Assembly (NCBI GenBank): GCA_052327205.1 | Contig: CM126203.1 | Coordinates: forward strand, 94,426,001 to 94,490,000 | Direction: 5' to 3' | Origin: Somniosus microcephalus | Taxonomy: Eukaryota | Length of the DNA stretch: 64,000 bases | Shown: positions 2,547-52,139 of the stretch, one piece after another | How the letters are laid out: the number at the start of each line of letters is the position of its first letter | How positions within the stretch are numbered: position 1 is the stretch's first letter | Notes under the pieces: generated by a model | Told to the model about the DNA's origin: nothing | Databases searched by the model: none | Seen by the model: only the letters and a program-made list of their open reading frames with translations | Position numbers and translations under genes: made by a program

Positions 2547-5118
2547 TCAGTACCCTGTCCCTGCATCCTCCCCATATCCCTTGATCCCTTTAGCCTTAAG
2601 AAATATATCTAACTCCTTCTTGAATATATTTAATAAGTTGGCCTCAACTGCCGCCTGTGGTAGAGAATTCCACAGGTTCAACACTCTCTGGGTGAGGAAA
2701 TTCCTCCTCATCTCAGTCCTAAATGGCTTACCCCTTATCTTTAGACTGTGACCCCTGGTTCTGGACGTCCCCGCCATTGGGAACATCCTTCCTGCATCTA
2801 GTCTGTCTAGTCCTGTTAGAATTTTATAAGTTTCAATGAGATCCCCTCTCATTCTTCTAAACTCTAGTGACTATAAGCCTAATCGACCCAATCTCTCTTC
2901 ATACGTCATTCCTGCCATCCCAGGTATCAGTCTGGTGAATCTTCGCTGCACTCCCTCCATGACAAGAACATCCTTCCTCAGACAAGGCGACCAAAACCGC
3001 ACACAATACTCAAGGTGTGGTCTCACCAAGGCCCTGTACAACTGCAGCAAGACATCCTTGCTCCTGTACTCGAATCCTCTCGCTATGAAGGCCAACATAC
3101 CATTTGCCTTCTTAACTGCCTGCTGCACCTGCATGCTTACCTTCAGCGACTGGTGCACAAAGACACCCAGGTCTCGTTGCACTTCCCCTTTTCCCAATCT
3201 ATTGCCGTTCAGATAATAATCTGTCTTCCTGTTTTTGCCACCAAAGTGGATAACCTCGCATTTATCCACATTATACTGCATCTGCCATGCATCTGCCCAA
3301 TCACCCAACCTGTCCAAATCATACTGGAGTTTCTCTGCATCCTCCTCACAGCACACATGCCACCCCATCTTTGTGTCGTCTGCAAACTTGGAGATATTAC
3401 ATCTAGTTCCCTCGTCTGGATCATTAGTATATATTGTGAATAGCTGGTGTCCTAGCACCGATCCCTGTGGTACCCCACCAGTCACTGCCTGCCACTCGGA
3501 AAAAGACCCGTTTATTCCAACTCTTTCCTTCCTGTCTGCCAACCAGTTCTCTATCCAAGTCAGTACCTTACCCCCAATCCCATGTGCTTTAACTTTGCAC
3601 ACCAATCTCTTATGCGGGACCTTATCGAAAGCCTTCTGAAAGTCCAAATACACCACATCCACTGGTTCTCCCTTATCTATTCTACCAGTTACATCCTCAA
3701 AAAATTCCAGTAGATTAGTCAAGCACGATTTACCTTTTGTAAATCCATGTTGACTTTGTCCGATCCTGTCACTGAATTTCCTAGTGCTCTGCTATTACAT
3801 CTTTTATAATGGACTCTAGCATTTTCCCCACTACCGATGTCAAGCTTACTGGTCTATAATTCCCCGTTTTCTCTCTACCACCTTTTTTTAAATAGTGGGG
3901 TTACAGTAGCTACCCTCCAATCCATGGGAACTGTTCTAGAGTCTATACAATTTTGGAATATGACCAGCAATGCATCTACTATTTCTAGTGCCACTTCCTT
4001 AAGTACCCTAGGATAGGTCCTGGGGATTTATCGGCCTTCAATGCCGTCAATTTCCCTAACACCATTTCCCTACAAATACTGATTTCATTCAATTCCTCCC
4101 TCTCTTTAGACCCTATGTTCCCCGACATCTCTGGAAGGTTGTTTCTGTCCTCCTTTGTAAAGACAGAACCAAAGTATGTATTTAACTGGTCTGCCATTTC
4201 TTTGTTCCCCATTATAAATTCCCATGAATCTGACTGCAAGGGACCTACGCTTGACTTCACCAATCTTTTTCTCTTCACATATCTATAGAAGCTTTTACAG
4301 TCAGTTTTTATGTTCCCTGCAAGCTTACTCTCATATTCTATTGTCCCCCTCTTAATTAATCCCTTTGTCCTCCTTTGCTGAATATTAAACTGCTCCCAAT
4401 CCTCAGGTTTGCTGCTTTTTCTGGCCAATTTATATGTCCTCTCCTTGGATCTTATGATATCCCTAATTTCTCTTGTTAGCCATGGTTGAGTCACCTTTTT
4501 TGTTTTATTTTTATGCCAAACAGGGATGAACAAATTCTGTAGTTCATCCATGCGATCTTTAAATGTTTGCCATTGCCTATCCACCGTCAACCCTTTAAGT
4601 AACATTCTCCAATCCATCCTAGCCAACTCGCGCCTCATATCATCATAGTTTCCTTTATTTAAATTCAGGACCCTAGTCTCCGAGTCTACTACTTCACTCT
4701 CCATCTCAATGAAGGATTCAATCATATTATGATCGTTCTTCACCAAGGGAATTCGCACAACAATATTGCTAATTAATCCTTTCTCATTACATAATACCCA
4801 GTCTAAGATGGCCTGATCTCTAGTTGGTTCCTCGACATATTGGTCCAGGAAACCATCCCGTATACACTCCAGGAATTCCTCCTCCACAGTATTGTTACTA
4901 ATTTGGTTAGCCCAATCTATATGTAGATTAAAGTCACCCATGATAACTGCTGTGCCCTTATTGCACTCGTCTCTAATTTCCCATTTAATGCAATCCCCAA
5001 CCACAGCATTACTGTTTGGGGGTCTGTATACAACTCTACCCATACAGATTCCACATCATCAGAGCTAATATCCTTCCTTACTATTGTGTTAATCTCCTCT
5101 TTAACCAGCAATGCTACC
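2547..5118 (-). pseudogene. CR1-A ORF2 (APE endonuclease + reverse transcriptase), frameshifted
   Basis: ORFs 3985-5043 (VYRPP, MGDFN, LDWVL), 2871-3722 (LDFQKAFDKV, GVPQGSVLG, FADD), 2547-2852. Confidence 0.9.
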
Positions 5119-5347
5119 TGTGGTGATTATTCTTTGTTTAGTAAGAAGTATTGTGATTGGTTGTTTGTTTCCTGCCTTGGGATATATGCTGTAATCTCAT
5201 TGGTAGTTGATGTCATGTGATTTGTGGTGGCCATCTTAAATTCAGTTCTTTCCAGCCTTTAGTTGGGACTGGGTGTTGAAAGATGTGCTACAGGATTTTT
5301 AAGTTAATAAAGCCTAGATTAGAAAGGCAAATCTATTCTTTATTTCA
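5119..5347 (+). repeat. 5' LTR of element A
   Basis: Direct repeat of 12534-12762, TG...CA, AATAAA at 5306. Confidence 0.95.
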
Positions 5348-5368
5348 ATTTATTAACTTTATGTCAGA

Positions 5369-6967
5369 ATGGAGCGATATCTTCAACCAGAACGATTCAA
5401 TGCTGACCCTAATTCTGCAGGAGTGGATGATAAATGGAAACACTGGTATTGTACATTTTAAAACTTTTTGGGCGTGTTGGATCAAGAGTCTCTAAATAAG
5501 CTGAATATGCTGATCAGCTACATTGCTCCGGATGTGTATAAGTATATTTTGGACTGTAAAACTTACGAAGTGGCTATTTCTACATTGGAAAAGATTTTTG
5601 TTAAACCAAAGAATGAGGTATTTGCACGTCACCTTCTATCTGCCCGTAGGCAGCAGGTGGGAGAATCTTTGGATACTTATTTACAAGCACTTCGGTGCCT
5701 TAGTGTTAACTGTAATTATAAGGCCGTGACGGCTGAAGAATATAAGGAAGAATCGGTACGGGATGCTTTTATTAATGGATTACTGTCTAGATCAATTCGT
5801 CAGCATTTGTTAGAAAATAAGACTTTGGATCTTAAGAGTGCTTTTGAGCAAGCTTCTACATTGGATGTGGCTCAGAGAAGTTCGGATTCTTATGCTCTTT
5901 TTAATCGGCCTGTGACTGTGGTTTCGGCAGTTCCGGATGAAAAGGAATTATGTGGACTTAATAGGAGTGGTTTACTAGATTCTGAAACAGTTTCTACTTC
6001 AGCGGCTGTTGCCTCTAGGATTCAGAAGTGTTATTTTTGTGGGAACGTCCGGCACCCTCGTCTGAAGTGTCCTGCTTGGGAGGCTGTGTGTAGTAAATGC
6101 GGCAAGAGAGGTCATTACGCACGTGTGTGTAAATCATCAGGTTCAATTACCTCCTCTGTGACTATTCAGCCTTTAGATAGGGTGTTTATTGCATCAATTT
6201 CTGCTGCATTTGCTCATGGCCTAAACAAAGCTATAGTTACAGCCCAAGTTAATGGGTTGGAAGTGAAGGCCCTTATAGATACGGGCAGTACCGAGAGTTT
6301 TATAAGTCTTCAGTTTGCAAAGGAGAAGCATTTGAAAATTTCGCCTGTTTCCTATCAGGTGTGTATGGCTCAGACGACTCTCACTTCACAAGTAGCTGGT
6401 TGTTGCCTTGTGAAATTGATTCTTCTAGGTAATACGTATACTGATATACGCCTATCTGTTTTGCCTAATCTCTGTGCGGATATTTTGATTGGTCATGATG
6501 TGCTTCAGTTACACGAGTCTCTTAGTCTTTCATTTGGAGGGACTAAGCCACCTTTATCTATTTGTGGATTAACCTCTTTATCCATTTCTCCATTATCACT
6601 TTTTTCCAATTTGATGCCGGATTGTAAGCCAATTGCTACCAAGTCAAGAAGGTATAGCAGTCAGGATAGAGAATTTATTAATTCTGAAGTTCAACGTCTC
6701 TTATTGGAAGGAATCATTGAACCTAGTTGTTCGCCTTGGCGGGCACAGGTAGTTGTCACGACTAACGAGAGACATAAGAAACGAATGGTGATAGACTATT
6801 CCCAAACTATTAATAGGTATACTCAATTAGATATGTACCCTTTGCCTAAGATTGATCAGCTTATCAATAAAGTATCTCAGTATAAGGTTTTTAGCACTAT
6901 TGACTTAAAGAGTGCTTATCATCAGATTCCTATTGTTAAGAAGGATCAACCATATACGGCCTTTGAA
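5369..6967 (+). pseudogene. Element A gag-protease-RT N-terminal half
   Basis: ATG 5369 (MERYLQPERFNADP), premature TAA 5459-5461, two CCHC knuckles, LIDTGS protease, RT start (SPWRAQ, IDLKSAYHQ), cut at ...TAFE. Confidence 0.9.
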
Positions 6968-9900
6968 CATAAGAACATAAGAACATAAGAAATAGGAGCA
7001 GGAGTAGGCCAATCGGCCCCTCGAGCCTGCTCCACCATTCAATAAGATCATGGCTGATCTGATCCTAACCTCAAATCTTCTATCACTCTGCATCCACCCG
7101 AACCCATGTGATCTCCCGGGAGAGGCGAAAAACCAGATAAAGACCCAATGGCCAATTTGGGAGAAAAAAATCTGGGAAATTCCTCTCCGACCCATCTAGG
7201 CGATCGAAATTCTTCCAGGAGATCACTCTGTCCCTATATTTTCTACAGTACTTACCTTCTGTAAAGGCGATCTCCACCCCAGCCAGGAACAGGAATAAAA
7301 CCATCTCCTGAAATCTAACACAGAATTAGAACACAGTAGGAGCAGAACAAGGCTACACAGCCCCTGGGCCCACTCCACTACCCACAGGGCCATGACCATT
7401 CCGAACCTAGACTCATGTCCAATTTCCTGCCCGCTCCCCGTAACCCTTAATTCCCTTTACTTCTAGGAAACTATCTATTTCTGTTTTAAATTTATTTAAT
7501 GATGTAGCTTCCACAGCTTTCTGGGGCAGCAAATTCCACAAACCTACCACCCTCTGAGTGAAGAAGTTTCTCCTCATCTCAGTTTTGAATGAGCAGCCCC
7601 TTATTTTAAGATTATGCCCCCTAGTTCTAGTTTCACCCATCATTGGGAACATCCTCACCGCATCCACCCGATCAAGCCCCTTCACAATCTTATATGTTTC
7701 AATAAGATCGCCTCTCATTCTTCTGAACTCCAATGAGTAGAGTCCCAATCTACTCAACCTCTCCTCATATGACCACCCCCTCATCCCCGGGATTAACCGA
7801 GTGAACCTTCTTTGTACTGACTCGAGAGCAAGTATGTCTTTTCTTAAGTATGGACACCAAAACTGTATGCAGTATTCCAGGTGCGGTCTCACCAATACCT
7901 TGTACAACTGCAGCAATACCTCCCTGTTTTTATATTCCATCCCCCTAGCAATAAAAGCCAACATTCCATTGGCCTTCTTAATCACTTGCTGCACCTGCAT
8001 ACTAACCTTTTGAGTTTCGTGCACCAGGACCCCCAGATCCCTTTGTACTACAGTACTTTCCAGTTTCTTGCCATTAAGATAATAACTTGCTCTATGATTT
8101 TTCCTGCCAAAGTGCATAACCTCACACTTTCCAGTATTGTATTCCATCTGCCAAATCTCTGCCCACTTACTTAGCCTGTCTATGTCCCTTTGCAGGTTTT
8201 TTATGTCCTCCTCACTCACTACTTTCCGTCCCATCTTTGTATCATCTGCAAACTTTGATATGTTACACTCGGTCCCCTCCTCCAAATCGTTAATATAGAT
8301 TGTAAAGAGTTGGGGACCCAGCACTGACCCCTGCGGAACACCACTAGTTACTGGTTGCCAATCTGAGAACGAACCATTAATCCCAACTCTCTGCTTTCTG
8401 TTAGAGAGCCAATCCTCCACCCACGCCAGAATATTACCCCCAATCCCGTGATTTTTTATCTTGAGCAATAATCTTTTGTGTGGCACCTTGTCAAATGCCT
8501 TTTGGAAGTCTAAATACACTACGTCCACTGGTTCCCCTTTATCCACCCTGTATGTTACTTCCTCAAAAAACTCAAGCAAATTTGTCAAACATGACTTCCC
8601 CTTCATGAAACCATGCTGAGTTTGTCCTATTAAATTATGTTTATCCAAATGTCCCGTTACTGTCTCCTTAATAATGGACTCTAACATTTTACCAACCACA
8701 GATGTTAGGCTAACAGGTCTATAGTTTCCAGCCTTCTGCCTACTACCCTTTTTAAATAAGGGTGTTACATTAGCAGTTTTCCAATCTGCCGGGACCTTTG
8801 CTGAGTCCAGTGAGTTTTGGAAAATTATTACCAATGCATCCACAATCCCTACCGCTACTTCCCTCAAGACCCTAGGATGCAAGCCATCAGGTCCAGGGGA
8901 TTTATCCGCCTTGAGTCCCATTATTTTACCAAGTACCACTTCCTTAGTGATTTTAATCGTATTTAGTTCCTCCCCCCTAGAGCCCCCTGTTTGTCCAGTG
9001 TTGGGATATTCTTAGTGTCCTCTGCTGTAAAGACTGATACAAAATAATTGTTCAGCGTTTTTGCCATCTCCATGTTTCCCACCATTAATTTCCCGGTCTC
9101 ATCCTCTAAGGGACCAACATTTACTTTAGCCACCCTTTTTCTTTTTATATAACTATAAAAACTTTTACTGTCTGTTTTTATATTTTTTGCTAATTTACTT
9201 TCATAATCTATCTTCCCTTTCTTAATCAATCTTTTAGTTATTTTTTGCTGTCTTTTAAAGACTTCCCAATCTTCCATCCTCCCACTAGATTTGGCTACCT
9301 TATATGCCCTTGTTTTTAGTCGGATACTATCCTTAATTACTTTACTTAGCCACGGATGGCTATCTTTTCTTTTACACCCTTTATTCCTCAGTGGAATATA
9401 TTTTTTTTGGAAGTTGTAAAATAACTCCTTAAATGTACACCACTGGTCATGTACCGTCTTACCCTTTAATCTATTTTCCGCTCTCATACATTCATAGTCT
9501 CCTTTATTCAAGCTCAGCACGCTTGTTTGAGATCCAACCTTCTCACCCTCTAATTGAATATGGAACTCAACCATGTTATGGTCACTCATTCCAAGGGGAT
9601 CCTTTACTAGGACATTTTTAATTAATCCTGTCTCATTACACAGGACCAAATCTAAGGTTGCTTGCCCCCTGGTCGGTTCAGTTACATACTGCTCAAGAAA
9701 CCCATCCCTAATACACTCAATGAACTCATCCTCAAGGCTGCTCTGCCCAATTTGATTTGTCCAGTTAATATGATAATTAAAATCCCCCATAATTATAGCT
9801 GTTCCCTTATTACAAGCCTCAACTATTTCCTGATTAATACTCCGTCCAACAGAGTTGCAACTGTTCGGAGGCCTATAGACTACACCCACTAGTGTTTTTT

Positions 9901-10206
9901 TCCCCTTATTATTCCTTATCTCCACCCAAACTGTTTCACTATCCTGCTCCTTTGACCCAATATCATTTCTCTGTATTATAGTGATTCCTTCCTTTATTAA
10001 CATAGCCACCCCACCTCCTCTCCCTTCCTGCCTGTCCTTCCTGATTGTTAAATAACCTGGTATGTTTAATTCCCAGTCATGGTCACCCTGCAGCCATGTT
10101 TCTGTAATGGCCACAAGATCATACCCATATGTCATTATTTGTGCCGCTAACTCATTCATTTTGTTACGAATGCTACGTGCATTCAGATAAAGAACTTTCA
10201 AATATG
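6968..10206 (-). mobile_element. 5'-truncated CR1 LINE (CR1-B) inserted in the RT of element A
   Basis: (GAACATAA)3 tail from 6965 with GAA microhomology; joining 6967 to 10207 restores in-frame TAFE-AGGKLYQF (cf. TAFKANGRLYQF in element C). No TSD. Confidence 0.92.
7413..10200 (-). pseudogene. CR1-B ORF2 (endonuclease + RT) with a frameshift near 8960
   Basis: ORF 8963-10243 (YLNARS, AITETW, MGDFN, SDH) and ORF 7413-8939 (PQGSVLGP, FADD). Confidence 0.92.
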
Positions 10207-12312
10207 GCTGGTGGAAAGCTGTATCAGTTTTGCCGAATACCATTTGGTGTTACTAATGGTGTTGCTTGTTTTCAACGGGCAATGGATGCTTTTATAAGTG
10301 ATAACTCTCTCTCTGACACCTTTTCATACTTAGATGACATCACGGTGTGTGGCAAATCAAGGGTGGAGCATGATTCTAATTTAGAAAGATTCCTTCAAGC
10401 TGCGGAAAAAGTTGGTTTAACTTTCAATAAAGAGAAGTGTACCTTTTCGACCACTGAGGTAAATCTACTGGGGTACATTATCTCGGGAAACAAGATTAAA
10501 CCAGACCCAGAATGCCTGCGACCATTGATTGATTTACCTTGTCCTACTAATTCTAAGGCTTTGCAACGAGTTGTTGGACTGTTTTCTTACTATTCTAATT
10601 GGATTGCAAATTTTTCACAGAAGATCCAGCCTCTTATTCGGGTTACGACATATCCTCTATCATGGGAGGCCAGGACGTGTTTTGATAATTTTAAAAAGGA
10701 TATCCTTGGAGCAGTTGTGCATTCTATTGATGAGCAGGTTCCTTTTGTGATTGAGATGGACGCTTCTGATTTTGCAATTGGGGCTACTCTGAACCAAAAT
10801 GGAAGACCTGTGGCCTTTTTCTCACGTACCTTGAACAATAGTGAAAAAAGGCATTCTTCAATAGAGAAAGAGGCGTATGCAATAGTAGAAGCACTGCGTA
10901 AATGGAGACATTATTTATCGGGGCGACATTTTACGTTGGTAACTGATCAAAAGTCTGTGTCCTTTATGTTTGATGTCAAACATTTTGGAAAGATTAAGAA
11001 TGATAAAATAATGAGGTGGAGGATTGAGTTGGCATGTTACCATTTTGATATAGTTTATCGTCCGGGGAAGGATAATGTTGCTGCTGATGCGCTGTCGAGG
11101 GCTTATTGTTCTGTGATTCACGGAGATACGCTTATTAATCTTCACAATGCCTTATGCCATCCTGGGGTTACGAGGATGATACACTTCGTACGCAGTAAGA
11201 ATTTGCCCTTTTCAGTTGAAGACGTCAAGCGGATGACTTCATCATGTTCTATCTGTGCTCGGTGTAAACCGAATTTCTTTAAGCCTCAACGAGCTCATCT
11301 TATAAAGGCTACTTCTCCTTTTGAACGTTTGAGCGTCGATTTTAAGGGGCCTCTTCCTTCAACTACTCAAAACCGATATATATTTACTGTTGTGGATGAG
11401 TTTTCAAGGTTCCCTTTTGCTTTTCCTTGCGCAGATGTATCAGCTGCTACAGTTATCAAATGTCTGACTCAACTTTTTGTCATCTTTGGGATGCCTGCGT
11501 ATATCCATTCGGATCAGGGAAGTTCTTTTATGTCTTCCCAGTTGAAGGAATACCTTCAGAGTCGGGGAATTTCGACTAGCAGAACTACCCCGTATAATCC
11601 CCAGGGTAATGGACAGTGCGAACGATACAATGGGGTGATCTGGAAGGCAGTTATGTTGGCTTTGACATCCCGGAACCTTAAGAATACACAGTGGGAAATG
11701 GTACTGCCTGATGCCCTGCATTCCATTAGATTATTGCTTTCAACGGCTACTAATGTGACCCCCCATGAAAGGCTCTTTAACTATCCACGGAGATCTACTA
11801 CGGGATATTCGGTACCTTCATGGCTTACTATGCAGGGACCTGTGCCGCTTCGACGCCATGTTAGATTGTCAAAATATGATCCTTTAGTGGAGGAGGTGGA
11901 GCTGTTGGAGGCAAATTCCCAATATGCTCATATTCGATTCCAAGATGGGAAAGAAAGTACCGTTTCAATTAAAGACTTGGCTCCTTGTGGTGGCCAGCCC
12001 TCTTCTGAGGATATTAACAATAGTCATGATTCAGATAATGTGGATGCTGTTACAGATACTACGAATATTTCCAATCCGACTGCAGATAATTATACTTCTA
12101 TTAGTCAGCCCTCGATGGATGTTCATGACCGTCCCAGTTTACCTCCTGATGGGATTTCTAATCCGGAAACCGTTGAAAATCGGGATATGGGTAGCCTTCC
12201 TGCAGAAGATACTTCTGTGTCTCGTGGTGTGTGAGGGCAAGGAATTTCACCAAGGTTAAGAAGGTCGATACGAACAAGATATCCGGTCGACCGATTGAAA
12301 ATGGACTTTTAA
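10207..12312 (+). pseudogene. Element A RT-RNaseH-integrase C-terminal half
   Basis: YLDD, DASD, KEAYA, HHCC, DDE core; in-frame TGA at 12232-12234, after which the frame continues to the family tail LRRSIRTRYPVDRLKMDF* (12312). Confidence 0.92.
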
Positions 12313-12533
12313 ATTGATAGTAATGTTTTAAAATTGTTGAAATATTATATTATATTGTTTTAGTTGAGAGATACTTAATACTTATGTGCAATGTTACTAT
12401 TTGTTGTTGCTCACTTAGTATTGTGTCATGTTGAATAGTTTTATTTTGTCTGTGCATAGTTTTAGTTGTAAATAATTAATTATAAATTGTAAAGGTTATT
12501 TAGGTTGGAGTATATTTTAAAAGGAGGGGTGAA

Positions 12534-12762
12534 TGTGGTGATTATTCTTTGTTTAGTAAGAAGTATTGTGATTGGTTGTTTGTTTCCTGCCTTGGGATAT
12601 ATGCTGTAATCTCATTGGTAGTTGATGTCATGTGATTTGTGGTGGCCATCTTAAATTCAGTTCTTTCCAGCCTTTAGTTGGGACTGGGTGTTGAAAGATG
12701 TGCTACAGGATTTTTAAGTTAATAAAGCCTAGATTAGAAAGGCAAATCTATTCTTTATTTCA
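12534..12762 (+). repeat. 3' LTR of element A
   Basis: Direct repeat of 5119-5347, preceded by PPT. Confidence 0.95.
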
Positions 12763-13134
12763 CTACCCCACCTCATTTTCCTTTTTGCCTGTCCTTCCTG
12801 AATATTCAATACCCCTGGATGTTGAATTCCCAGTCTTGGTCACCCTGGAGCCATGTCTCCGTAATTCCAATTACATCATATCCATTTACATCTATTTGCG
12901 CAGCTAATTCATCCACCTCATTATGAATGCTCCTCGCATTAAGACACAAAGCCTTCAGGCTTGTTTTTTTAACACTCTTAGTCCTTTTAGAATTATTATT
13001 TACTGTAGCCCTGTTTGATTTACACCCTTGATTTCTCTGCCTTCCACTTTTGCTTTTCTCCTTCCTGTCTTTTGTTTCTATCCTTGCTTCCCTTTCCTCT
13101 GTCTTGCTGCACAGGTTCCAAACCCCCTGCCATT

Positions 13135-14085
13135 TTAGTTTAAACCCTCCCCAACAGCACTAGCAAACACTCCCCCTAGGACATCGGTCCCGGTCCCGCC
13201 CAGGTGCAAGCCGTCCAGTTTGTACTGGTCCCATCTCCCCCAGAACTGGTTCCAATGTCCCAGGAATTTGAATCCCTCCCCCTTGCACCATTCCTCTAGC
13301 CACGTATTCATCTGAAATATCCTTCTATTTCTACTCTGACTAGCACGTGGCACTGGTAGCAATCCTGAGATTACTACCTTGGAGGTCCTATTTTTTAATT
13401 TACCTCCTAACTCACTATATTCAGCTTTTAGGACTTCATCCCATTTTTTACCTATATCGTTGGTACCTATATGCACCACGACAACTGGTTGTTCACCCTC
13501 CCCCTCCAGAATGCCCTGCAGCCGCCCCGAGACATCCTTGACCCTTGCACCAGGGAGGCAACATACCATCCTGGAGTTTTGTTTGCGGCTGCAGAAACGC
13601 CTATCTATTCCCCTTACAATAGAATCCCCCAGCACTATAGCTCTCCCACTCTTTTTCCTCCTGTCCTGTGCAGCAGAACCACCCATGGTGCCAGGAAGTT
13701 GGCTGCTGCTGCCTTCCCCTGATAAGCCATCTCCCTCAACAATATCCAAAGTGGTATATCTGTTTGAGAGGGGGATGGCCACAGGGGACTCCTGCACTAC
13801 CTGCTTGCGCCTACTACTCTGCCTGGTGGTCACCCATTCCCTTCCTGCCTGTGCAGCCTTTACCTGCGGTGTGACCAACTCCCTAAACGTGCTATCCACG
13901 ATGTGCTCAGCATCGCGAATGCTCCAGTATGTATCCATTTGCAGCTCCAGCGCCACAATGCGGTCTGTCAATAGCTGCAGCTGGATACACTTCCCACACA
14001 CATGGTCGTCAGGGACACAGGAATTGTCCCTGATTTCCCACATAGCGCAGGAGGAGCATGCCACGGGGCCGAGCTGTCCTGCCAT
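13135..14085 (-). CDS. CR1-A ORF1p: zinc finger/leucine zipper + SGNH esterase domain, intact 316 aa
   Basis: CxxC...CxxC, heptad leucines, GDSI, HIGTND, DGLH motifs typical of CR1 esterase ORF1. Confidence 0.9.
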   Translation of the reverse strand: MAGQLGPVACSSCAMWEIRDNSCVPDDHVCGKCIQLQLLTDRIVALELQMDTYWSIRDAEHIVDSTFRELVTPQVKAAQAGREWVTTRQSSRRKQVVQESPVAIPLSNRYTTLDIVEGDGLSGEGSSSQLPGTMGGSAAQDRRKKSGRAIVLGDSIVRGIDRRFCSRKQNSRMVCCLPGARVKDVSGRLQGILEGEGEQPVVVVHIGTNDIGKKWDEVLKAEYSELGGKLKNRTSKVVISGLLPVPRASQSRNRRIFQMNTWLEEWCKGEGFKFLGHWNQFWGRWDQYKLDGLHLGGTGTDVLGGVFASAVGEGLN

Positions 14086-14294
14086 GAATTACCCTTTAAT
14101 TAATTTAAATCAAATCAATACCACTATTTACACTACAATTAAAGGATATACTCAAGGGCCCTTGGTTACTAGCACTCCCCAATACACAACAGAGACCTTA
14201 GAAACTATAACCACAAAAATTAAGACTGTCTAAATTTTATAAACTATTAATCTTAACTGTCAAACTATATAGTATAAATACTCACCTGGCCATA

Positions 14295-28632: not shown

Positions 28633-28684
28633 CTAGCTGGGGGTGCCCGGCGGTGCCGAGGCTTTTTTAAGGGCATGTTTTTGT

Positions 28685-29140
28685 TGGAAGAGAGAGAGAG
28701 CGAGTTGGGGGGAAGAGAGAGAGTGAGTTGGGGGGAAGAGAGAGAGCGACTGGGGGGAAGAGAGAGAGCGACGGGGGGAAGAGAGAGAGCGACGGGGGGA
28801 AGAGAGAGAGCGACTGGGGGGAAGAGAGAGCGACTGGGGGGACGAGAGGAGAGAGCGACTGGGGGGAAGAGAGAGAGTGACTGGGGGGAGAGAAGAGAGC
28901 GAGAGACAGGGGAGTGAGCACGACTGGGGGTGGAGAGAGAGAGCGAATGGGGGGAAGAGAGCGAGAGACTGGGGGGAAGAGAGAGAGCGACTCGGGGGGA
29001 AGAGAGAGAGCGAGAGACTGGGGGGAAGAGAGAGAGCGAGAGACTGGGGGGGAAGAGAGAGAGTGAGAGACGAGGAGGCGAGAGACGGGGGAAGAGAGAG
29101 AGCGAGAGAGCCTGGACGTAGGGAAGAGAGAGAGAGTTCC
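28685..29140 (+). repeat. Purine-rich minisatellite (~20-bp GAGAGAGCGACTGGGGGGAA) next to the assembly gap
   Basis: About 20 imperfect copies visible. Confidence 0.9.
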
Positions 29141-38005: not shown

Positions 38006-40059
38006 CAGGAAAGATTGAGCAGACTGGGGCTCTTTACTCCAGAAGAGGGAGGACTAAGAGGAGACGTGCATGTAACTTGTATTATTTACATATCTCAACA
38101 ACTTGTGTGATGACACGCTAAAGTGATATACGCATATATCTCAGGATCTATTTTACAGTACCAAGTTCTTTCAAGACAGTGATGACTTGTGGTGAGTTCA
38201 GCAGTTAGACCAAATTCAAAATCAATAAATCATACTGGGAGAAATCAACTTAGTCAATTTACATTATATTTTTATTCAGGCCTTTTAGGAAAATCCTGAT
38301 GGATCCAATGCATTTAAAACCACATTGATAATTTTGAGTATACTGACAAACATAGCAACATGTGAAATAGATGTGTAGAATAATTTTAAATATGTATTGA
38401 AGAAAAAAATATAGCTGAACATTGGAAAATTTAGAGTAAATTCAGTAAATTTCACCAGATTGAATTAAATTAATGGGAACATAATATCTGATGGGGTCTA
38501 ATGAATCAAAGGTTTGCCAAATAAATGGTTGCTGCTGGCATCCCTATTCTCTCACAGAAAACATTTTCACAGTAGTACAGCTTTGCTAACCTTTGCATTA
38601 GATCGGGAAAAACACTTTTTCTGAGTTTTAATGATACAAATAAAAACTGATTTTTAAAATGATTTTCTCTGAATTTCCCCAGTTATTTTGAGGTCCAATT
38701 TTTACTCCCTAATTTTCTCCTGGTTTTTGAATCTAAAAATAAAACCTGAAAACACTCAAAAACATGTTTTTAAATTGGCAATAAAAACTGACTAATGGTC
38801 CTTATTTGTAACAAATTAAATCATTTACAAAAATAATGAAGTGTTTAACTGATGAATTTTTCTTACAAATACATGGATTTTTTTTTATAACTTTAAATTC
38901 TGATTGAATCCAGTGCTGCCGACTTGGTTGTTCCTCTCCCTTATTTAGGTAGAAGGCAAACACAGTGAGAAAATGAGCCTAGTAAGCTTCTGCAGCCCTT
39001 CTGAAAACAAAACTGAGGACAAACAAACAAACCTATTTCTTATGTGATAGTTTGATTACCTCATCACAAAAATTACTGTGGAGAATGTGTTTTTTAATAC
39101 AGCAAAGTACTATCTTACTTTGAGTATTTTCTGTAAGATTGAATATGTCAAGTGCAATACAATACAAAACCACTTTGGAATGAAGAACCACGCTATCAAG
39201 CACAGTTAGCGATGTTTGTGAAATAGGCTCCATAGCCAATGCAAACTGACGGCCACATTTGTTGCATGCCCTTTGTTGTCCATTTCCTGACTCTTGCTGG
39301 TTGACATTTCTATAAAGATTCTTTTCTTCTGCTGTTAACACTTGAAACTGAATCAGTTATTGTTTATAGATATTCATAATATCAGTATCTCACTTTTGTG
39401 TAATTAATCTTGCATTAACTTTAATAATTGAACTGTACGGGCTGATAACATGGTGTTTTCCTGCCTTTCAAAGAGCACAGGAGTGCATGGTGGGTAACCC
39501 CTGCAACCTCTGGGGCAAAATAGTTTTGTAAAAGGATTATAATGTGCTACTACTTGTTAAGTCTGTGAATTATTTAGTTAATTAAAACAGACTAATGAGT
39601 AACAATAAAAACAGGTCTTTACTGGTTGGAGGTAGGGACTATACTGAATACAAGATTACTGCACAGTGCTTATATACCGGTGTGTTCACCCCCGGTATTA
39701 CGTCTACAGCAGCCTGAGAAAGTAGTACATCTCTTAAGGTGGAACAGGCTTAAGCTCTCTTAAGGTGGAACAGGTTACATACACAACACTCCTCCCTTCT
39801 TAGCTTTATAGTCATCCCCCCCATTTAACATAACGTAATAACATATATACATATATAACTTCATGTTTAACGTAACATATCACAGATTCAGTCTCTGCGG
39901 AAAACAGTTCACAGATTCAATCTCTGTGGTGTAGTCGGTTCACGTTACTCATTCAATAGTCCTTTCATGGATTTAACAGCTTGAACTTCCGAACTGATTT
40001 GGCTCCGTTCGGAGGGACCACGTGTGTGATCTGGTAGAGGTGATAATGGTTCAGATGGG

Positions 40060-42348
40060 TCATCTTCTGTTTTTACTTTTCCTTTTCTGCTTCTTGGAGA
40101 CTCTCTGGGCTCCATTGTCAGCTGCCACAGCTGCCAGCTGCATGCGCAGTTCCTCCTTCTCTTCCTCCTGTTTCCGTCGTAGAGCCAGCTTCTCCCGATG
40201 TTCCGTAGACTTTTGGTGCTCCTCCATGATTTCTGCACTTTGGGAGTCGAAGTTACAAGCTGGGCAGGACAGGACATCGTAATATTCGGTGTCGTCCACC
40301 AGGTCATGGTAATATTCGGTGTCGTCCTGAGCTAGACCAGTGAGAGGGTCGTCTATTTCCTCCATACCCAGCTGGACGTTAGCCAGCTCTTGTTCCAAAT
40401 CCAGACATCTTTCCTGAAGAGACTTCTTCATGTGTACCTCTGCATCCAGCTTTTTCTGGGCTTTCAGCAAGTCGTTTACTAGTGACCTCATTTGTGATTT
40501 TAATACTTCAACTTCCTTTGGAGATTGATCGATCGGACTATGCAATCCCTCTACCGGAGCAGCTGTTTCAGCGGTCTGTTGTTCTACATTGACGTGAGTC
40601 AGCGTACTTTTGGCATCCAATGGCTGCTCTGTTGCAGTCGTTTCAGTCTGTGTCGTCACATCAGCCATCTCAATGACTTTTGAGAGCTCCGAACCCTTTT
40701 CCTTTGAAGATCGCAGCTCGTGTTCAAGTTTTTCCCATTTCAGAGTCTTGTCCCTCAGCATATGGAGTTGGCTGACCGTTAACTCTTCTGACACCAGATT
40801 ATGGCACGCACCTTCAGAACCTGAATCAGCTTTGATTCGTTCGGCCTCCTCGCGCAGATGGTTGGTGTGCTCCTGCTCCATTTTCTCCATCAGTTGCTTC
40901 TGTTGACTTTCCAGATTCTCCCACTCTGTAACAAAGAACTTTTTTATTTCATTCATCTCTTGCTCAAAACGGCGAATCATTTGTTCTAATTGCTGTTGTA
41001 GTTTGAAATGGAGTTGAGTTCGAGCCCAGTGTCCCTCAAAAATGTGCATATCAGTAGACTTGACAGACTCAGAATTCTCTGTTAAACTATGTTGTTGTTG
41101 CTCAGTGGAATTCTGTGCTGAAACTTTGTCTTTTGCACATGGGTTGGTCTTACCATCATCAGTTCTAGAGTCTGGGCTGATTATCTGCACCGAGTTCTCA
41201 CTCTTTATGGCTTTTAGCGAATGCCAGTCCATATTTATGTTTCTAAACCACTCCCGGCCTAGTAGTGGTGGACCTCCCTCCGGTAGCACATATAAGTCCA
41301 TTATTTGACTTCCTTCGCCCTTGTTGGCCACTGCAACCTTTACTGTCCCGATGGGGTACACTCTCTGCCCCGTGTAGGTTGTCAATATAATCTCCGTATC
41401 CTGTAGGGGAATATGTTGGAATAACCTTCTGTAATCTTTCTTATTCATGACCGACAATGCCGATCCAGTGTCCAATTCCATTTTTACTTGGACTCCTTCT
41501 ATCTGAAGAGTAACCCAAATTGTCTGGAGGTCTGCACCCTTACCAACGTTGAGTACCCTTAAGCTAGCCAGTTCAATACTGCTTGCGTCTGAATCGGACT
41601 CCTGTTCGGCCACCTTGTGTACCTTTGCGTATTTCCCTTGCGGTGACTTCTTGTTGCTGGTCTTCTTCGCTGACCTGCATACTCTAGCTATATGTCCAAG
41701 CCTTCCACAAGTTCTACATTCTTGGTTTTTAAACCAACACTGGTTCTGATCATGCGTTGTCTTTCCACAACGATAACATTTGCCAGAACTCACACCCAAT
41801 TTGTGTGCACTGAGCTCCGGTGACCGTAGCTGCATTACTGCCGTGCCTCTCGCTGCGGCTTCGTGTGCTGCTGCCATAGTGACCACCTTCTCAAGCGTCA
41901 GCTCATTCTCCTCGAGCAGTCGCTTTTGTGTATCCTGTTTAAATAAACCACACACAAATTTGTCTCGAAGTGCCTCTGTCAGTCCCGTTCCAAACTGGCA
42001 ATATTTCGCTAATTTACGCAATTCCAGCAAATATTCAGCATTGCTTTCATGCTGTAGCTGCCTTCTGTCGTAAAATTTAAATCGTTCCGCTAGCATCAGC
42101 GGTGTGGGGTTTAGATGATCTTTCAGGACAGTAACAATCTCATCGAACGTCTTATCCGCCGGTTCATCTGGTGATAACAGGTGTTTCAATTGCCCGTATG
42201 TCTTCGCACCCATTAAATTTAATAATGTTAGAGCTTTATCTTGGTCACGAATTTTATTGGCCTTACAATAATTTTTTACTCTTTCAACATATATGGCCCA
42301 ATCTTCGAGGTCACTATCAAAGGTGCTAATATTCCCGTGTTTAGGCAT
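40060..42348 (-). CDS. 762-aa Gag-protease fused to STK10/SLK-like, optineurin-like and DNAJC21-like segments
   Basis: aa1-225 Gag with two CCHC, aa275-378 protease (ELDTGS, LLGREW), aa439-507 STK10/SLK-like coil, aa508-660 OPTN-like coil, aa~675-762 DNAJC21-like C2H2 finger and basic tail; no stops. Confidence 0.9.
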
Positions 42349-42755
42349 TGTAGATTTGCAATTTCTCAGATTTTATTTTCTTTACTTGTTATCAAAGATG
42401 GCGGCTTCCCGCTCTTGCCGTCGTCCTCCGCCCACAAAATGGCGGTTTTCCCGCACTTGGCGGTCTTCACCCGTCCCCCGACGCCGTCTCCCTTCAGCCC
42501 CCGAGTGCGGCCCTTATCAGCGGATGCGATCGATGGCCCAGCTGCGCCTCGCACTTGAAAGCGGCCCGGCCCTTATCTGCCGATCGCTATCGCCCTATAC
42601 CTCTCTCTTCCCCAGTCCTGTCTTCTACTCCGGTTCACAAGCTGATGGAGGCTTCAGGGTCCTAATGCCTGTCACTTCCAGTGGGGTGGTGAGTGGTGAG
42701 GTTTGAAACCTCTCTTCAACCGCCGTGGAATAACTGCCGCAGGGTAAGAACCTGA

Positions 42756-42765
42756 CTCGTCGCCA
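42756..42765 (-). promoter_or_regulatory. Primer-binding site of element B (tRNA-Ser(GCT) type)
   Basis: TGGCGACGAG one base after the 5' LTR; complementary to the ...CTCGTCGCCA tRNA end. Confidence 0.8.
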
Positions 42766-45700
42766 GTGTTAAGTCTGTGAATTATTTAGTTAATTAAAAC
42801 AGACTAATGAGTAACAATAAAAACAGGTCTTTACTGGTTGGAGGTAGGGACTATACTGAATACAAGATTACTGCACAGTGCTTATATACCGGTGTGTTCA
42901 CCCCCGGTATTACGTCTACAGCAGCCTGAGAAAGTAGTACATCTCTTAAGGTGGAACAGGCTTAAGCTCTCTTAAGGTGGAACAGGTTACATACACAACA
43001 CTACTTCTGTTCACAGCATACATATGGTGCAAGTTTCTGATCATGGAAGGCCTGAGTCTGCCTATGGAAACTGCATTTAGCTGTAAATATGATAGAGTTG
43101 GAGGAGAGCCTGAATTGTTAACATCCATTAATTAAAGGGAGTATGGTATCTGCCCCTCCAACCTCACATGCCACGACTCATTAGCCACATTTAAAGGAGT
43201 TCTGTCCTGGAACATAAACTACCTGTAATTCCCAGGAGAGAATGTGGAGCTAAAACCTCCATTCCAGTCCTTCTCCTTGAACAGCCAACATGCATAGACT
43301 CCAAAGAGATTAGAAGTGACCTGAAACTATCCCATAGATGTACTAACACCTTCAGTCTGGAGAGTCATTTGTTTCTCACTAAATTAATTGCTTTGATATT
43401 TTGCTTTGGACTTTGGAAGCTCATTTTATCTCCGTGAGTCGTAAAGAATCGTCCTTGAGATTGCAATTTCTAATGATGAATGGAAAGCTGTGGGTATCAG
43501 ATTTCTAGGTGACTGTTATCTTTTTGGGTCTTTTACTCTAGGATCACTCTCCTAGGTGAATTCCAACTTCCAGTGCCTTTGGGAATGCCTTCACAGCATT
43601 ATTATCCAGATAAAATGTTTGGTAATGTGCCCAGGGCAGTGAATAAAAACCGTGTCTCTCAGTTCTTCTTAAGCTACTAAAATTCTTTTCCTTCCACCAG
43701 ATCTATCTTCAGTCTATGATAAATAGAATATCATATCCCGACCTCAATTTAACTATAAATTATTATTAAATAAACAAGCAAATAAGTAACAATAATATAA
43801 CATACATATATAATATGTGGAAATGCTATGATCTATCCCCTTAATGGGGAAAATAGTAAAAGGTTGTGAATCTAAATACTAACCTGTATTTCTATAAACA
43901 ACTGTTCTGTACATAGCTCTCCTCTTTCTTGTCTTGTTACAAGCTTTGGGAGCTTAGTTTGTTCGATCTAAGTTTGTTCGATCAACTACACTGAGGACTG
44001 TTCTCCATTTGTTCCTTTTGTGTCTCCTGATCTATTGCCAAAGCTCATTAAAAATTAATAGCTGCCAACCTCATTCAAAAAGCAGCAAGCTACCAATTAT
44101 AACTGGATCAATCATGAAGTCTATATATTTGAAAATCATGTTAGATACCCTCTCAAGTCTTCTACAGGGAAACTATAAAAAAAATTGGAAACATATGTAA
44201 AGAAATAGGTTCAGATTGTAGGTAGCTTTTCAAAATCTGATGTATTGTACCTGATTTAAAAATACAGCTGCCAGACCAAAACAAGACAGTATTCCTTCAT
44301 ATTTGTCACAGTGGCACCTAGTAATCACTTGTGGGAGAGTGAACTTAAAATGTTATACTATATCTATCATCTTGCCAGGTCACCTACACCCAGAGATTGC
44401 TAATATTTTGGGGGGTAATTGTGAAGGGGTCTGCAATTTATTCCACGTCTTCTGGGATTCTCCCATGATTTGGGATATTTTAAGCAATGACCTTGTACAT
44501 ATTAGTGCCAATTCAGGTTTTTTTCAGTTATGATGGAGGAAATGCTGTTTCAAATGAGAAGATTGTAACTTTATATATTTTTTGATAGGATGTGGTCTGG
44601 CACTTGTATTTCTGCATCTGGTGCAAAGCGATCAGTATATAGTTGACATGATATCCTGCATTCATAGGTTTTTTTGGAGGGGGTGGTGGAAATATATATA
44701 ATCATCATGACCAAAGAATAGCTAGAGTATCCTAAGTGGATAGGTGTAAAAAAAGTTTCAGCTTGGTATTCTTACCACTGAACATTTTATTAGGTAGTGA
44801 TTTAAATGACAGTGAAGTTGTAATCACCTTAAATGATAGGGAGGTGGGTAAGACTACAGAAGGAGCCAAGCCCATGCAATATCAATGCAGGTGGCTTTGG
44901 AGGCACCTAGAGATTTTACAGGAGCAGAGGCTTCAGCAACCTAGAAAGACTAGTGGGCAGTTGTTCACAGGCAGAGGACCTGTTGTTGTAACTCTGAGCA
45001 CAGTGTAGGTGTGCAGGATAGCAGCAGGCCACCTGCACAGTGTTACTCATTACGCTGCTGCATATTGTGCACTGAGCAGGTCTGGCAAAGATTCAGCACA
45101 CTGACCTTACACAAGGGATGATGCAATGGCAAGTGGGGGGCTTTGACCTTGTAGCACTGTCCAATCTGTCATAGTCATTTGTCCAGAGAAGATGTTGACA
45201 TCTAATCAGAGAGGACGCATGATTAACAGTTCAATGCTACATCTCATCCAAGACATGGTAACCTTATGTAACTTGCCTACTTGAGAGAAGGGTACGGAGT
45301 CATGTAATTAACACATTAGCTGAGATTAACAGTCCGAGCTTATTGGAAGGCACAGTTGCTCAGTTAGGCAGTGATGAAGTCCGTGCAAAACTTTCAGTAC
45401 TAACACCAGACAAAGCTGGCTATGTGAGGTAATTTGTCTGTGATGGCAGCTGGGCAACAACCAGCCTCCTTACCACACAGTACACAAGACTGACAATTAG
45501 GGGAAGGATAAAATTTGTTACAAAGAAGAAAACAGAGTAGGAGTTAAGGGCAGTTTTGCAGACATGTTGGAAGTGAGTAGCAGTGTCCCACACAATTCAT
45601 GTCTGGAGCCACTTTAGAAAGCTGTGAACAAATCAGGACCTACCTGCAGTGTGAACAAAATGAGACCCTCTTAACACTGAAGAAATAGGTAGGTTTAATG

Positions 45701-46135
45701 CTCCAGAAATCACTAGCATAACTATAGTTGGAAAAAGCAGGCTCTCCTCAAAGTATTAAAATTGGCACTTGTGGTGAGATTGAAGTCTGTGGTTTATGTA
45801 TTTAAAAAAAAAGGATCTTCTCATTGTGCAGAAAGTAACGATGTTCCTATTGAACCAAAATTCAGGCCCACCTACTGCTGCAACAAATAATGGCTGTTTA
45901 ATTTTGTAAAGAACGCAGCCCTCCTTCTGATGAGAAAAATTAGGACCTGTTTACTTTCAAAAAATTGGGACCTTCTCTATTGTCAAAGAAGTTATGCAGT
46001 TTGGAAATCACACTGAACCACTTTCACAACTCCCCTCCTGAGAATTTATAACCTGCCAACTAGACACTCTGCCAACTCCCCCCTTGAAATAAGATACTTT
46101 GCTCATCCACCCCATTGATGCACTTTCAAAACCCT

Positions 46136-46880
46136 TAAGACAATCTCCCATCTCTCCACCTCTCGGGCACTCTACCACCTAATCCCCATTGAGGCACTTT
46201 CACAATCCCCTGAGACAATCTCCCATCTCTCCACCTCTCGGGCACTCTACCACCTAATCCCCATTGAGGCACTTTCACAATCCCCTGAGCCAATCTCCCA
46301 TCTCTCCACCTCTCGGGCACTCTACCACCTAATCCCCATTGAGGCACTTTCACAATCCCCTGAGACAATCTCCCATCTCTCCACCTCTCGGGCACTCTAC
46401 CACCTAATCCCCATTGAGGCATTTTCACAATCCCCTGAGACAATCTCCCATCTCTCCACCTCTCGGGCACTCTACCACCTAGTCCCCATTGAGGCATTTT
46501 CACAATCCCCTGAGACAATCTCCCATCTCTCCACCTCTCGGGCACTCTACCACCTACTCCCCATTGAGGTACTTTCACAATCCCCTGAGCCAATCTCCTA
46601 TCTCTCCACCTCTCGGGCACTCTACCACCTAGTCCCCATTGAGGCATTTTCACAATCCCCTGAGCCAATCTCCCATCTCTCCACCTCTCGGGCACTCTAC
46701 CACCTAATCCCCATTGAGGCACTTTCACAATCCCCTGAGACAATCTCCCATCTCTCCACCTCTCGGGCACTCTACCACCTAGTCTCCATTGAGGCATTTT
46801 CACAATCCCCTGAGACAATCTCCCATCTCTCCACCTCTCGGGCACTCTACCACCCAGTCGCCATTGAGGCACTTTGTCAA
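46136..46880 (+). repeat. 75-bp minisatellite, ~10 copies
   Basis: CAATCTCCCATCTCTCCACC recurs at 46141, 46216 ... 46816. Confidence 0.95.
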
Positions 46881-48578
46881 TCCCACACCACACTCCAGCA
46901 TTTCTTCCCAGCCCCGGAGACACTTTTACTTTCTTAGATACTTTACCCCCACCACCACTACTGAGCCACTTTACCCCTCACTATCGTAGTCTGGCACCCC
47001 AACACAGAGCCAGTTTACTCCCCACCGTCATTAAACATCCTGCCTAACCAACCCCACCGGCCACCTTGAAGACTTGCCAACCTCCCCACTGAGGTACTGT
47101 ACCAACCCTACCGCACTTTGTCAACTCCTCCACTGAGGCAGTATTGTAGCCTCCACCCGCCCCCCCCCCCGCCCCCACCAACCAAAGACACTTTTCCAGC
47201 TGCCCCCCTCCCCCCACTGAAGCACTATTCCAACTCCATCTGCTGGGGTACTTTTTGCTCTCTCTCACCCCTCTTCCCCACTAAGGTATTGATCCCCCCA
47301 TTGAGATATTTTTCCAACCTCTCCCCCACTGAGATACCTCTCTAAATTCTTCCCCTTTCCCCTCCACTCTCTGTCTCTCTCCTTCCTCCTCCGCTCTTGC
47401 CATCTCTCCTCTCCCTCTCCCTTCCTTCCTCCACTTCGGTCCAGTTATTCCCCTGCCCTGTAACCCTGCTTGATCTGAAGATAGCACTTAGACTTGACTA
47501 TCCATGTGCTACGTTAGGGAAATTGACTAGATATCTTTAATGTGGAATTAAGAGTTTTGGGGAGGAAAGAACAGCTACCTGTACCATAAGTAAGCCTTGT
47601 AAGATAATAGATAAACAATATTACAAAAATTTTACCTGTGAGGTCTTTAACAAACGTTAATACTTTTACTTTCTGGAAATCATGATATATTGCTTCAGTA
47701 GATTTGCTGCATTACAACATTGACATGTTATCATGCTTATTCTGTAAAAGGACCATGATAAACATCAGAAATTGCATTCTCAATCCCTGACTAGCCATGA
47801 GCAATGCCATGGGGATAATCTGGTGTGTGTATATATAGGTTTTTCCATATGTACATTTCAAAATCTGAGCTTTCATCTGGCCTTTCTGCATCTCTCAAAT
47901 ATACTAGAGAAGACCATAGCTTAATTCCAAAAATACAAAAAATAAATATTTCAAATCTCAAAAAAATGAAGGCAGCAAATCAAAAAAGAAAAAATCACAG
48001 ATATAATAGCTGAAAAATCCCTATCACTTAAATAAAATTAAAAAACTCCTGGAAAATTATTAAAAATACACAACCAATCTTCAGAGTAATTATAAAAACT
48101 AGGTGTAAGAAAAAAACTGCAAAATTAATGAAAAGAGGTACAATGAATCCAATATATAAATTTAAATTTCCTTATTTGCTGAAACAAATTAATTATGGAG
48201 ACGCAAGGGCTTGATGATCATGTTCTGACTGGTCAAGCTTATACCAATCCATATATTCTCCTAATCGTCTCAATCTTTGTGGTAACCTGAATTATAAGTC
48301 TGGAAGGCAAGCAATTTGAGATGTTTTTTCTATGTTAAAGGTATTATATGTTGTTGAAGTTTGGTTGAAGTTTCTCAGTATAATGAAAAAAATCACCTTT
48401 TCACATCCAGGTACAAAAGCAATTTAAAACAGTTGCATCCTTTCATACTGGTTTCATCTTCACACTTCATACCAGTAATGGCGTCAATTTAGATGCTGCA
48501 TGGTGATAATGTTAACATTCCATTTCTCCTTGTATAGACAAAACTATGAAAAGATGAGTACTCAGTTTGTGGCTTAGT

Positions 48579-50320: not shown

Positions 50321-51378
50321 ATGACCACCACCCGTAGCGCCAAGTTTCAGCGAGGTTTTGGCAGCAAGTGGGGGGTGGAACCCGGGGTGGAGCCAGAGGT
50401 GGAGGCGGAGGTAGAGCAACCCCCACCAGAGAAGTCGGAGCCGGGACCGATGTGCCCAGCACGGCATCGGAGGTTCGGTCCACCCGCCAATGGCGACATT
50501 GAGGGACCCCTCCAAAACCAGTTCGTATTACCCTTTAACACCCAACAGCTTAGGGCTATGGTCAGCCATCTCCCAAGGCTCTCCGAAAAGGGAGACCCCT
50601 CGATCCACTTCAGGGAAGTAGAGCAAACCGCCAGCGTCAACGACTGCGATGACGCTGAGAAGGCCAAAATGCTGCTATTCTCCCTGGAGAGTAGTCTCCT
50701 CCAATCCCTCTCTGACGAGTGCAAAAGGGGGCAGTGCGGGTATGAGGAGCTTAGAGATGCGGTTCTGGAGGCCATGGGGATGGATGAGGGAAGTCCTTTC
50801 TCCCGTGTGGGGAAGACGATCCAGCTCTCGGGAAACCCCGCAGGCTTTTGCGGACCGGGTGTGGCTGGTGTACCGGAGGGCCTGTCTGGGGACGCCAGAC
50901 TGGGCGTTCCTAAACGGGGATTCCCTGACGCATTGGCTCCGTTGCCTGGTGGCAAACAGCTTGCCACAGGTCCGGGCCAAGGCAGAAGCCTGGTTCGATC
51001 CCAAAAATCCCCAGACCACCGAACTTACGGTAATTAGGCAGCTCACTCTGGCTTACAAAAACGGTAGGGGAGCCGATGCACACCCACCCAAGGGACAGGT
51101 GCATGAGGTAAAACCCGGACCGGGTAGGAAAGATTGGCACCAGGAAGGGAGTAACCCCCCCAACACCAAGACCAATTGTTATGGGTGTGGGAAGGATGGT
51201 CACTGGCGGAAGGAATGCAAAAACCCTTGGAAAGATAACAAGGGAAAGCATCCCACAGGCCCAGCCCAAAAGGCGGGGGCAGGGACCCCTTCCGCAGAGG
51301 TCGAGTCACTTTTGGACGCCATGAGGTCCTTGCTGACTGGCCAGGGGAGAGTAGCAGCTGCCACCGGTGCTCTCACCC
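50321..51378 (+). pseudogene. Element D gag (frameshift near 50830; last codons at 56914-56942)
   Basis: ORFs 50321-51037 and 50649-51413; ETPQAFADRV, CYGCGKDGHWRKEC. Confidence 0.8.
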
Positions 51379-51648
51379 TGATGTGCCTCAATGAATCCGA
51401 GACTCAACGTTAACGGAGCAAAGCAAGGCTTTTATTAACTCGGAAAGTAATACACATTGGAGAAGTGTCTCTCATCCAGAGATCTGCTGTACTGGATGTG
51501 AGACACGCTGGGCCTGCTTAAGTAGGGGCCAGGTATGGGCGGAGCCCTACACACAATACAATACAGGTAAGGAAATGAAACTGAAACTAAACTAAACACA
51601 GAGAATACAGTGCCTGATGAATGGCATATTTCATCACATTCGCCCCTT

Positions 51649-52139
51649 CTACAGATTTAGTCTGTTCGGGGGTTTGGTAGTCCTCTGTGACCGACGTAGC
51701 GGTTGTGGTGCTGCGGGTGTCGGCTGGGTGTCCCCGGTGGCCTCCTGGGTCTCTGCCGGGGGCGCCGCCAGGGTTGTTGAAGGGGTAGTTGGTGGGGGCA
51801 CCGTTGGTCGGTGTTCTTCCGGGGGTGATGAAAGAGTAGTGGGTGGGTAAGAGTTGCTGTGATCGTTGTTGCTGTTGTTGTCGTGGTTGTTGTCGTTACC
51901 GGCTGGGGCGACGTCTTTTATGGACACGGTGTCCTCCCTTCCGTCGACGTGCCGGACATACGCGTATTGGGGGTTGGCGTGGAGTAGGTGCACTGACTCC
52001 ACGAGAGGGTCCGTCTTGTGGCCCCTCACATGCCTTCGTACAAATACCGGACCTGGGGTGGAGAGCCATGACGGCATGGATACGCCTGAGGTGGATTTCC
52101 AGGGAAAGACAAACATTCGTTCATGAGGCGTGGCATTAG
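51649..52139 (-). pseudogene. Element C integrase C-terminus
   Basis: TNATPHERMF...DPLVESVHLLHANPQYA...LRRSQRTTKPPNRLNL*; homologous to element A. Confidence 0.88.

Follow-up and report, generated by a model that had tools for sequence, protein, structure and literature searches.

The window analyzed here is a 64,000-nucleotide (nt) stretch of Somniosus microcephalus DNA (assembly GCA_052327205.1, contig CM126203.1, forward-strand positions 94,426,001 to 94,490,000). It holds element A, a Ty3/Gypsy long terminal repeat (LTR) retrotransposon in which the primer-binding site (PBS) position is occupied by the reverse complement of a stretch of its own 5' LTR. This self-complementary PBS is a real, conserved feature of the clade to which element A belongs and is probably a new form of self-priming. 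The best explanation, to which we assign a probability of roughly three in four, is Tf1-like self-priming with the element's own poly(A) signal serving as the primer; self-priming as such is slightly more probable, and self-priming combined with a real role in suppressing the 5' poly(A) signal stands at about even odds. The two strands of the helix in element A are as follows.

5301 to 5311, + strand: LTR strand of the helix and putative self-primer; its 3' end is a poly(A)-type hexamer (5306-5311).
5349 to 5359, + strand: PBS position, 2 nt past the CA of the LTR and without TGG; reverse complement of 5301-5311.

An earlier note on this DNA had reported the 11-bp complement one base after the LTR end at 5347, the lack of TGG and a gag ATG at 5369, 21 nt past the LTR, all of which were confirmed, the two strands being exact reverse complements with the single base 5348 separating the PBS from the LTR end. 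Chance complementarity in AT-rich sequence could draw on the composition of this helix, in which 1 of the 11 pairs is G-C, and on the finding that at least 11 bp was reached in 15 of about 19000 random 20-mers. Shuffling of the element A LTR reached 11 bp in 13 of 20000 mononucleotide shuffles and at least 11 bp in 8 of 5000 dinucleotide shuffles. By contrast, the longest complement in element B, a tRNA-type element of the same window used as a control, was 6 bp (p=0.38), and helices of differing sequence recur in register in seven families. Chance is refuted by these cross-family data and retains a negligible probability.

Two further members of the clade lie in the window.

51379 to 56908, − strand: element C, same clade as element A; LTR stretch 56711-56700, PBS 56647-56636, gag ATG 56622.
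1 to 617, − strand: element Z, truncated at the window start and representing a third family of the clade; gag ATG 283, LTR about 617-307.

The PBS of element C pairs perfectly over 12 bp with the 3' LTR copy of the stretch (51441-51430) and with a single mismatch to the 5' copy, and the helix of element Z is 15 bp long (LTR stretch 379-365 with PBS 305-291, − strand). A motif scan of the window gave 18 sites, with a helix of at least 9 bp at two of them, namely element A and position 305 on the − strand, which is element Z; being picked up by the pattern itself, element Z is not an independent test, and its gag is 40% identical to that of element C. Relatives outside the window were picked by protein similarity alone. 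A search with the pol region of element C matched 1431 proteins, 120 of which were listed; among these 120, with host range taken from the named matches, the closest named proteins come from rays and one catshark (70-77%), and others from a nematode and cnidarians, which by itself makes a cartilaginous fish the probable source of the window. Element C and 27 of these 120 matches were aligned, and one contig scan with the resulting 28-polyprotein alignment yielded 46 pattern matches that resolved into seven loci, L001 to L007. These loci sit in contigs of bacterial metagenome-assembled genomes, often beside tandem repeats, and are probably animal host DNA binned into those genomes. A junction between 5' LTR and leader is present in five of the seven, leaving out L005 (3' LTR only) and L006 (a pol fragment in which no LTR was recognised), and L002 and L003 were counted as one family (LTRs 91% identical).

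All five loci with a 5' junction carry a helix with their own LTR that begins 2 nt past the CA, of 14 bp in L001, L003 and L007, 15 bp in L004, and, in L002, 10 bp against the 5' LTR copy and 12 bp against the 3' copy. The helix is thus found in all eight relatives with a readable 5' junction (A, C, Z and the five outside loci). The number of shuffles reaching the observed length, per 20000, was 3 for L002 and 0 for each of C, Z, L001, L003, L004 and L007, with the scores for C and L002 taken against the 3' LTR copy. TGG is absent at positions +1 to +5 in 8/8 elements, the host tRNAs themselves not having been searched, and assignment to tRNA-primed elements was rejected on this ground.

LTRs of separate families can barely be aligned, and yet the best match of every PBS is to the LTR of the same element (11-15 bp on the diagonal against 3-11 bp off it). 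Among 15 columns anchored on the hexamer, 9 show more than one type of Watson-Crick pair, including the second base of the hexamer (six families). The first 11 pairs at seven native 5' junctions make up 77 cells, of which 75 are Watson-Crick; G-U pairs are absent, and both non-Watson-Crick cells lie where the two LTR copies of an element differ. The register is constant, with the helix beginning 2 nt past the LTR CA in every relative. AATAAA, ATTAAA and AGTAAA are common poly(A) signal variants, and it is these that form the LTR strand's 3' end: AATAAA in A, C, Z, L002/L003 and L007, ATTAAA in L001 and AGTAAA in L004, with ATTAAA at the corresponding place in the 3' LTR of L005. Changes in the PBS match each hexamer variant, and three families have one extra paired A. 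The hexamer lies 23-52 nt from the LTR end. The claim that element A carries the same kind of self-complementary PBS as its relatives is upheld, since every readable relative keeps the register of the helix and shows compensatory changes; sequence comparison strongly supports a clade-wide, conserved and functional self-complementary PBS without a tRNA-type site.

Starting at the base after the helix, a second stem of 4-6 bp occurs in 7/7 families, five of them with G-U pairs. Its statistics are post hoc (single p values 0.03-0.29, combined by Fisher's method 0.002). In element A it is placed as follows.

5312 to 5328, + strand: second short stem, 5312-5315 pairing with 5325-5328; it begins directly after the putative cut site.

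In Tf1, the transcript pairs through its first 11 nt with the PBS and is cut by RNase H between nt 11 and 12 (PMC7175516). On this model, the transcript of element A would start near 5301 and the primer would be freed by a cut after 5311, that is, behind the hexamer, so that the last paired A would provide the 3' OH, 2 nt from the LTR end. The constant register is what a primer requires and fits a priming role. R would be short, with a poly(A) site shortly upstream of the LTR end. About half of Tf1 cDNA ends 3' in a full-length copy of the PBS (PMC11042837), and a retained primer could therefore re-template the PBS, being copied back into it each cycle; such re-templating would explain a strictly Watson-Crick helix next to a wobble-tolerant stem.

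A primer could also come from the 3' copy, with the 3' end of the same or a co-packaged RNA trimmed to the hexamer and annealed to the PBS. The stretch exists at the RNA 3' end (12716 in element A) whatever the transcription start, and the PBSs of C and L002 fit the 3' copy better. However, those of L003 and L007 fit the 5' copy better, so differences between the copies look like post-insertion decay. The 5' copy is just 23-58 nt from the PBS, and trimming would strip the R required for strand transfer on that RNA. We thus consider a 3'-derived primer very improbable.

In a second role, the helix would mask the 5' poly(A) signal. The partner of the hexamer is the PBS, outside the LTR, and therefore exists at the 5' end only. 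Hexamer pairing was predicted at 0.93-0.99 at eight native 5' junctions. Of five native 3' LTRs, four gave values of just 0.16-0.43, the hexamer being decayed in one of these four (L003). A 5'-specific polyadenylation block by the helix, which the earlier note had raised for element A, is thus plausible for the clade (4/5 elements) on predicted folding, with element A itself as the exception. The proposal that the helix can form only at the 5' LTR likewise stood for the 11-bp helix and not for the hexamer, which in element A has a second partner.

5338 to 5344, + strand: LTR-internal competitor for the element A hexamer, present at both LTRs; found in A and not conserved.

Computational folding of the element A leader, a check that had been suggested, predicted hexamer pairing of 0.95 (5' LTR) and 0.98 (3' LTR) for RNA beginning at the helix start, and of 0.94 and 0.72, respectively, with 40 nt more upstream RNA. 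This copy shows no 5'/3' asymmetry because its hexamer is predicted to be paired at both ends.

The same data bear on whether the helix is a poly(A) silencer only, with priming by other means, for instance a tRNA fragment bound elsewhere. The LTR strand covers the hexamer in every case, predicted pairing is 5'-biased in four of the five elements with both LTRs, and HIV-1 masks its signal in a stem-loop (PMC12789967). Silencing alone gives no account of the start 2 nt past the CA, the flush end at the last A or the absence of G-U pairs, and the 18-28 nt ahead of the gag ATG accommodate no alternative PBS. We regard it as improbable, though less so than a primer from the 3' copy.

Several observations weigh against self-priming by the poly(A) signal coupled to its masking. 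In element A, the stretch 5338-5344 is predicted to engage the hexamer at the 3' LTR as well, and in RNA from 5301 the ensemble probability of the designed helix is just 0.37 (0.81 with 40 nt more). Adding 40 nt of upstream RNA lowered 5' hexamer pairing to 0.42 in L003 and 0.70 in L002. A TATA-like box at the expected distance was not found in any of seven LTRs. Covariation comes from only seven families, and part of the column variation represents indel shifts rather than independent events. Finally, two PBS-adjacent duplexes of a three-duplex 'pretzel' are required in Tf1 (bioRxiv 2022.12.06.519325), and such flanking duplexes were not detected in seven families (p 0.07-0.96 and 0.57-1.0) by a simple best-helix test, which might overlook duplexes that are short or bulged.

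One of these points favors self-priming only, in which the primer would contain the hexamer through LTR compactness or because RNase H prefers to cut after AAA, with promoter proximity silencing the 5' site. Pairing of the element A hexamer at both ends agrees with this, and polypurine tracts likewise end in AA. By contrast, restriction of the hexamer to AATAAA, ATTAAA and AGTAAA in eight families is a pattern we associate with poly(A) signals, and for A, C and L007 the LTR holds no second such hexamer. Promoter proximity as a silencing route appears in reference titles of PMC12789967. We judge self-priming only to be unlikely, although it is the strongest of the alternatives, and its priming step is common to it and to the preferred explanation, self-priming by the poly(A) signal.

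The features of element A are listed below, with LINE denoting a long interspersed nuclear element, RT reverse transcriptase and ORF open reading frame.

5114 to 5118, + strand: left target-site duplication, 5 bp; copy at 12763-12767.
5119 to 5347, + strand: 5' LTR, 229 bp, TG...CA; identical to 12534-12762.
5369 to 6988, + strand: gag (twin zinc knuckle), protease and start of RT; stop at 5459-5461; terminates at the LINE insertion.
6968 to 10200, − strand: nested LINE with endonuclease and RT ORFs, interrupting the element A RT; boundaries approximate.
10108 to 12234, + strand: ORF with remaining RT, RNase H and integrase; without chromodomain.
12519 to 12533, + strand: polypurine tract (PPT), upstream of the 3' LTR.
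12534 to 12762, + strand: 3' LTR; copy of the primer/hexamer stretch from 12716.

A domain scan gave the Ty3/Gypsy gene order (gag, protease, RT, RNase H, integrase), and element A is a broken copy, with a stop codon at 5459-5461 and the LINE (about 6968-10200, − strand) within its RT. Both LTRs are nonetheless identical, so the insertions of element A and of the LINE are both probably recent. The gag ATG has an out-of-frame ATG 8 nt upstream, at 5361. Upstream out-of-frame ATGs occur in three of eight elements (A, L002 and C, the last at 56627, 5 nt before its gag ATG) and not in the five others; those of A and C share the same relative frame, but the feature is not conserved. An Rfam search of 5000-5600 gave no match, and no tRNA genes were found within the 64-kb window. 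Among the outside loci, the contig ends of L001 (1-3949) and L004 (1-3969) overlap with a single LTR between PPT and PBS, making these one-LTR circles or collapsed repeats, and L007 (about 5360-5530) has a PPT and LTR start seemingly in tandem ahead of its 3' LTR.

With gag, protease, RT, RNase H and integrase between LTRs, a PPT and a target duplication, the element is placed in Ty3/Gypsy (Metaviridae), and among solved structures it matches Ty3 Gag-Pol best (E 3e-102). RT-RNase H identity is 57% between A and C and 43-63% across families of the clade, against 31% and 23% for A/C versus the other two LTR-type pol genes of the window. A tree of RT-RNase H was built from 75 sequences (67 protein matches left after alternate ones were dropped, four helix loci, L005, A and C, with two window elements serving as outgroups). 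The common ancestor of the helix-bearing elements spans 73 of the 75 leaves, all except the two outgroups, in a tree with low deep support values and L004 on a long branch.

The closest known systems are the Tf1/sushi elements (Tf1, Tf2, Tj1, sushi-ichi and the plant Tcn1 clade), which share the Ty3/Gypsy domain order and lack a tRNA PBS. Their PBS adjoins the 5' LTR and complements a stretch of about 11 nt in it (PMC7175516, PMC4600332, PMC6317226, bioRxiv 2022.12.06.519325), and complementarity of the PBS to the own 5' LTR is likewise found here. The two groups differ in that the PBS begins at +2 in this clade and apparently directly at the LTR end in Tf1, in the twin zinc knuckle seen in 82 of the 120 listed matches, and in the primer ending in a poly(A) hexamer, which the accessible parts of the literature examined do not report for Tf1/sushi. 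A chromodomain, usual but not universal in Tf1/sushi, was absent from the 120 Pfam lists and from scans of A, C and four full-length relatives. On the tests of chromodomain and pretzel, the element would not belong to Tf1/sushi.

In Copia elements integrase precedes RT, and in this clade it follows RT. The TAR/Houba/Osr-1 elements of plants, which belong to the Copia superfamily, have a self-primer predicted by the same criterion of a complement of at least 10 bp starting 0-5 nt past the LTR (PMC6317226). Retroviruses resemble the clade in carrying the signal in R at both ends and needing silence at the 5' end, which those with a signal in R achieve by a stem-loop (HIV-1), U1 snRNP (HIV-1, foamy virus) or a weak site (PMC12789967). 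They differ in being tRNA-primed, the hexamer partner being the PBS, outside the LTR, in this clade, and no retroviral case of PBS-based silencing of the 5' signal was found in the accessible part of that source. Dictyostelid Skipper (PMC5006619) and the fungal GalEa hairpin site (cited in PMC6934838) likewise lack a TGG PBS and are suspected of unconventional priming, but Skipper has no LTR complement and the GalEa hairpin lies within the internal region. Troyka/Kuafuorterviruses are also LTR elements of aquatic animals with short LTRs and one Gag-Pol ORF (PMC12440569, PMC11673190). Troyka, whose zinc finger is longer, was rejected on its CG...CG ends and 3-bp duplications, since A, C and L003 have TG...CA ends and duplications of 5 bp, and Gmr1-like elements because their integrase precedes RT (PMC3601003), opposite to the domain order here. 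Naming the clade (Mag, CsRN1, Cigr-1, Tor2 or MolGy) by motif searches of full texts, where only unrelated matches came up, and of the supplements of PMC6238403 and PMC11673190, and part of PMC8556966, gave no reference sequence, and the ESM Atlas gave generic Gag clusters only. No prior account of a poly(A)-ending self-primer or of self-priming in this clade was found in the accessible literature, which leaves Repbase and most subscription journals uncovered and makes an earlier report quite possible.

Within Ty3/Gypsy, the literature examined treats self-priming as a mark of Tf1/sushi chromoviruses, and self-priming by a chromodomain-less animal clade would suggest either another origin or broader use among ancestors, which bears on the proposal that hairpin priming preceded tRNA priming (PMC3601003). 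More tentatively, and with somewhat less than even odds, a separate origin of tRNA-free priming may have arisen in a widespread animal Gypsy clade, in which the helix silences the 5' signal during RNA synthesis and is then cut as primer and recopied into the PBS. If primer and poly(A) signal are indeed merged, this would be a new answer to silencing a 5' poly(A) site, priming and 3'-end choice would be one switch, and the clade would be beyond control by host tRNA fragments. The model gives base-exact predictions of RNA ends, and the helix motif reveals elements, such as Z, that tRNA-based PBS searches would miss.

The window contains other retroelements. Element B (39555-43005, − strand) is a short LTR element with a TGG-type PBS; in its ORF, gag-protease is joined to a region that matches Pfam PKK (E 1.5e-10), no RT was found in it, and it may carry captured host sequence. 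An ORF at 13138-14088 (− strand) has a GDSL esterase domain and is presumably a LINE ORF1. A Gypsy-type pol fragment at 61875-64000 (− strand), which served as a tree outgroup, has an RT-RNase H about 30% identical to those of A and C. Element C splits another retroelement (50622-51413 and 56943-61150, + strand), in the pol of which an RNase H-like connection domain precedes a second RNase H (PF00075), an arrangement described for retroviruses, Lokiretroviruses and Odin elements (PMC12440569). Tandem arrays lie at 45979-47028 and 28665-29101, with spacings of 75 bp and about 21 bp, respectively.
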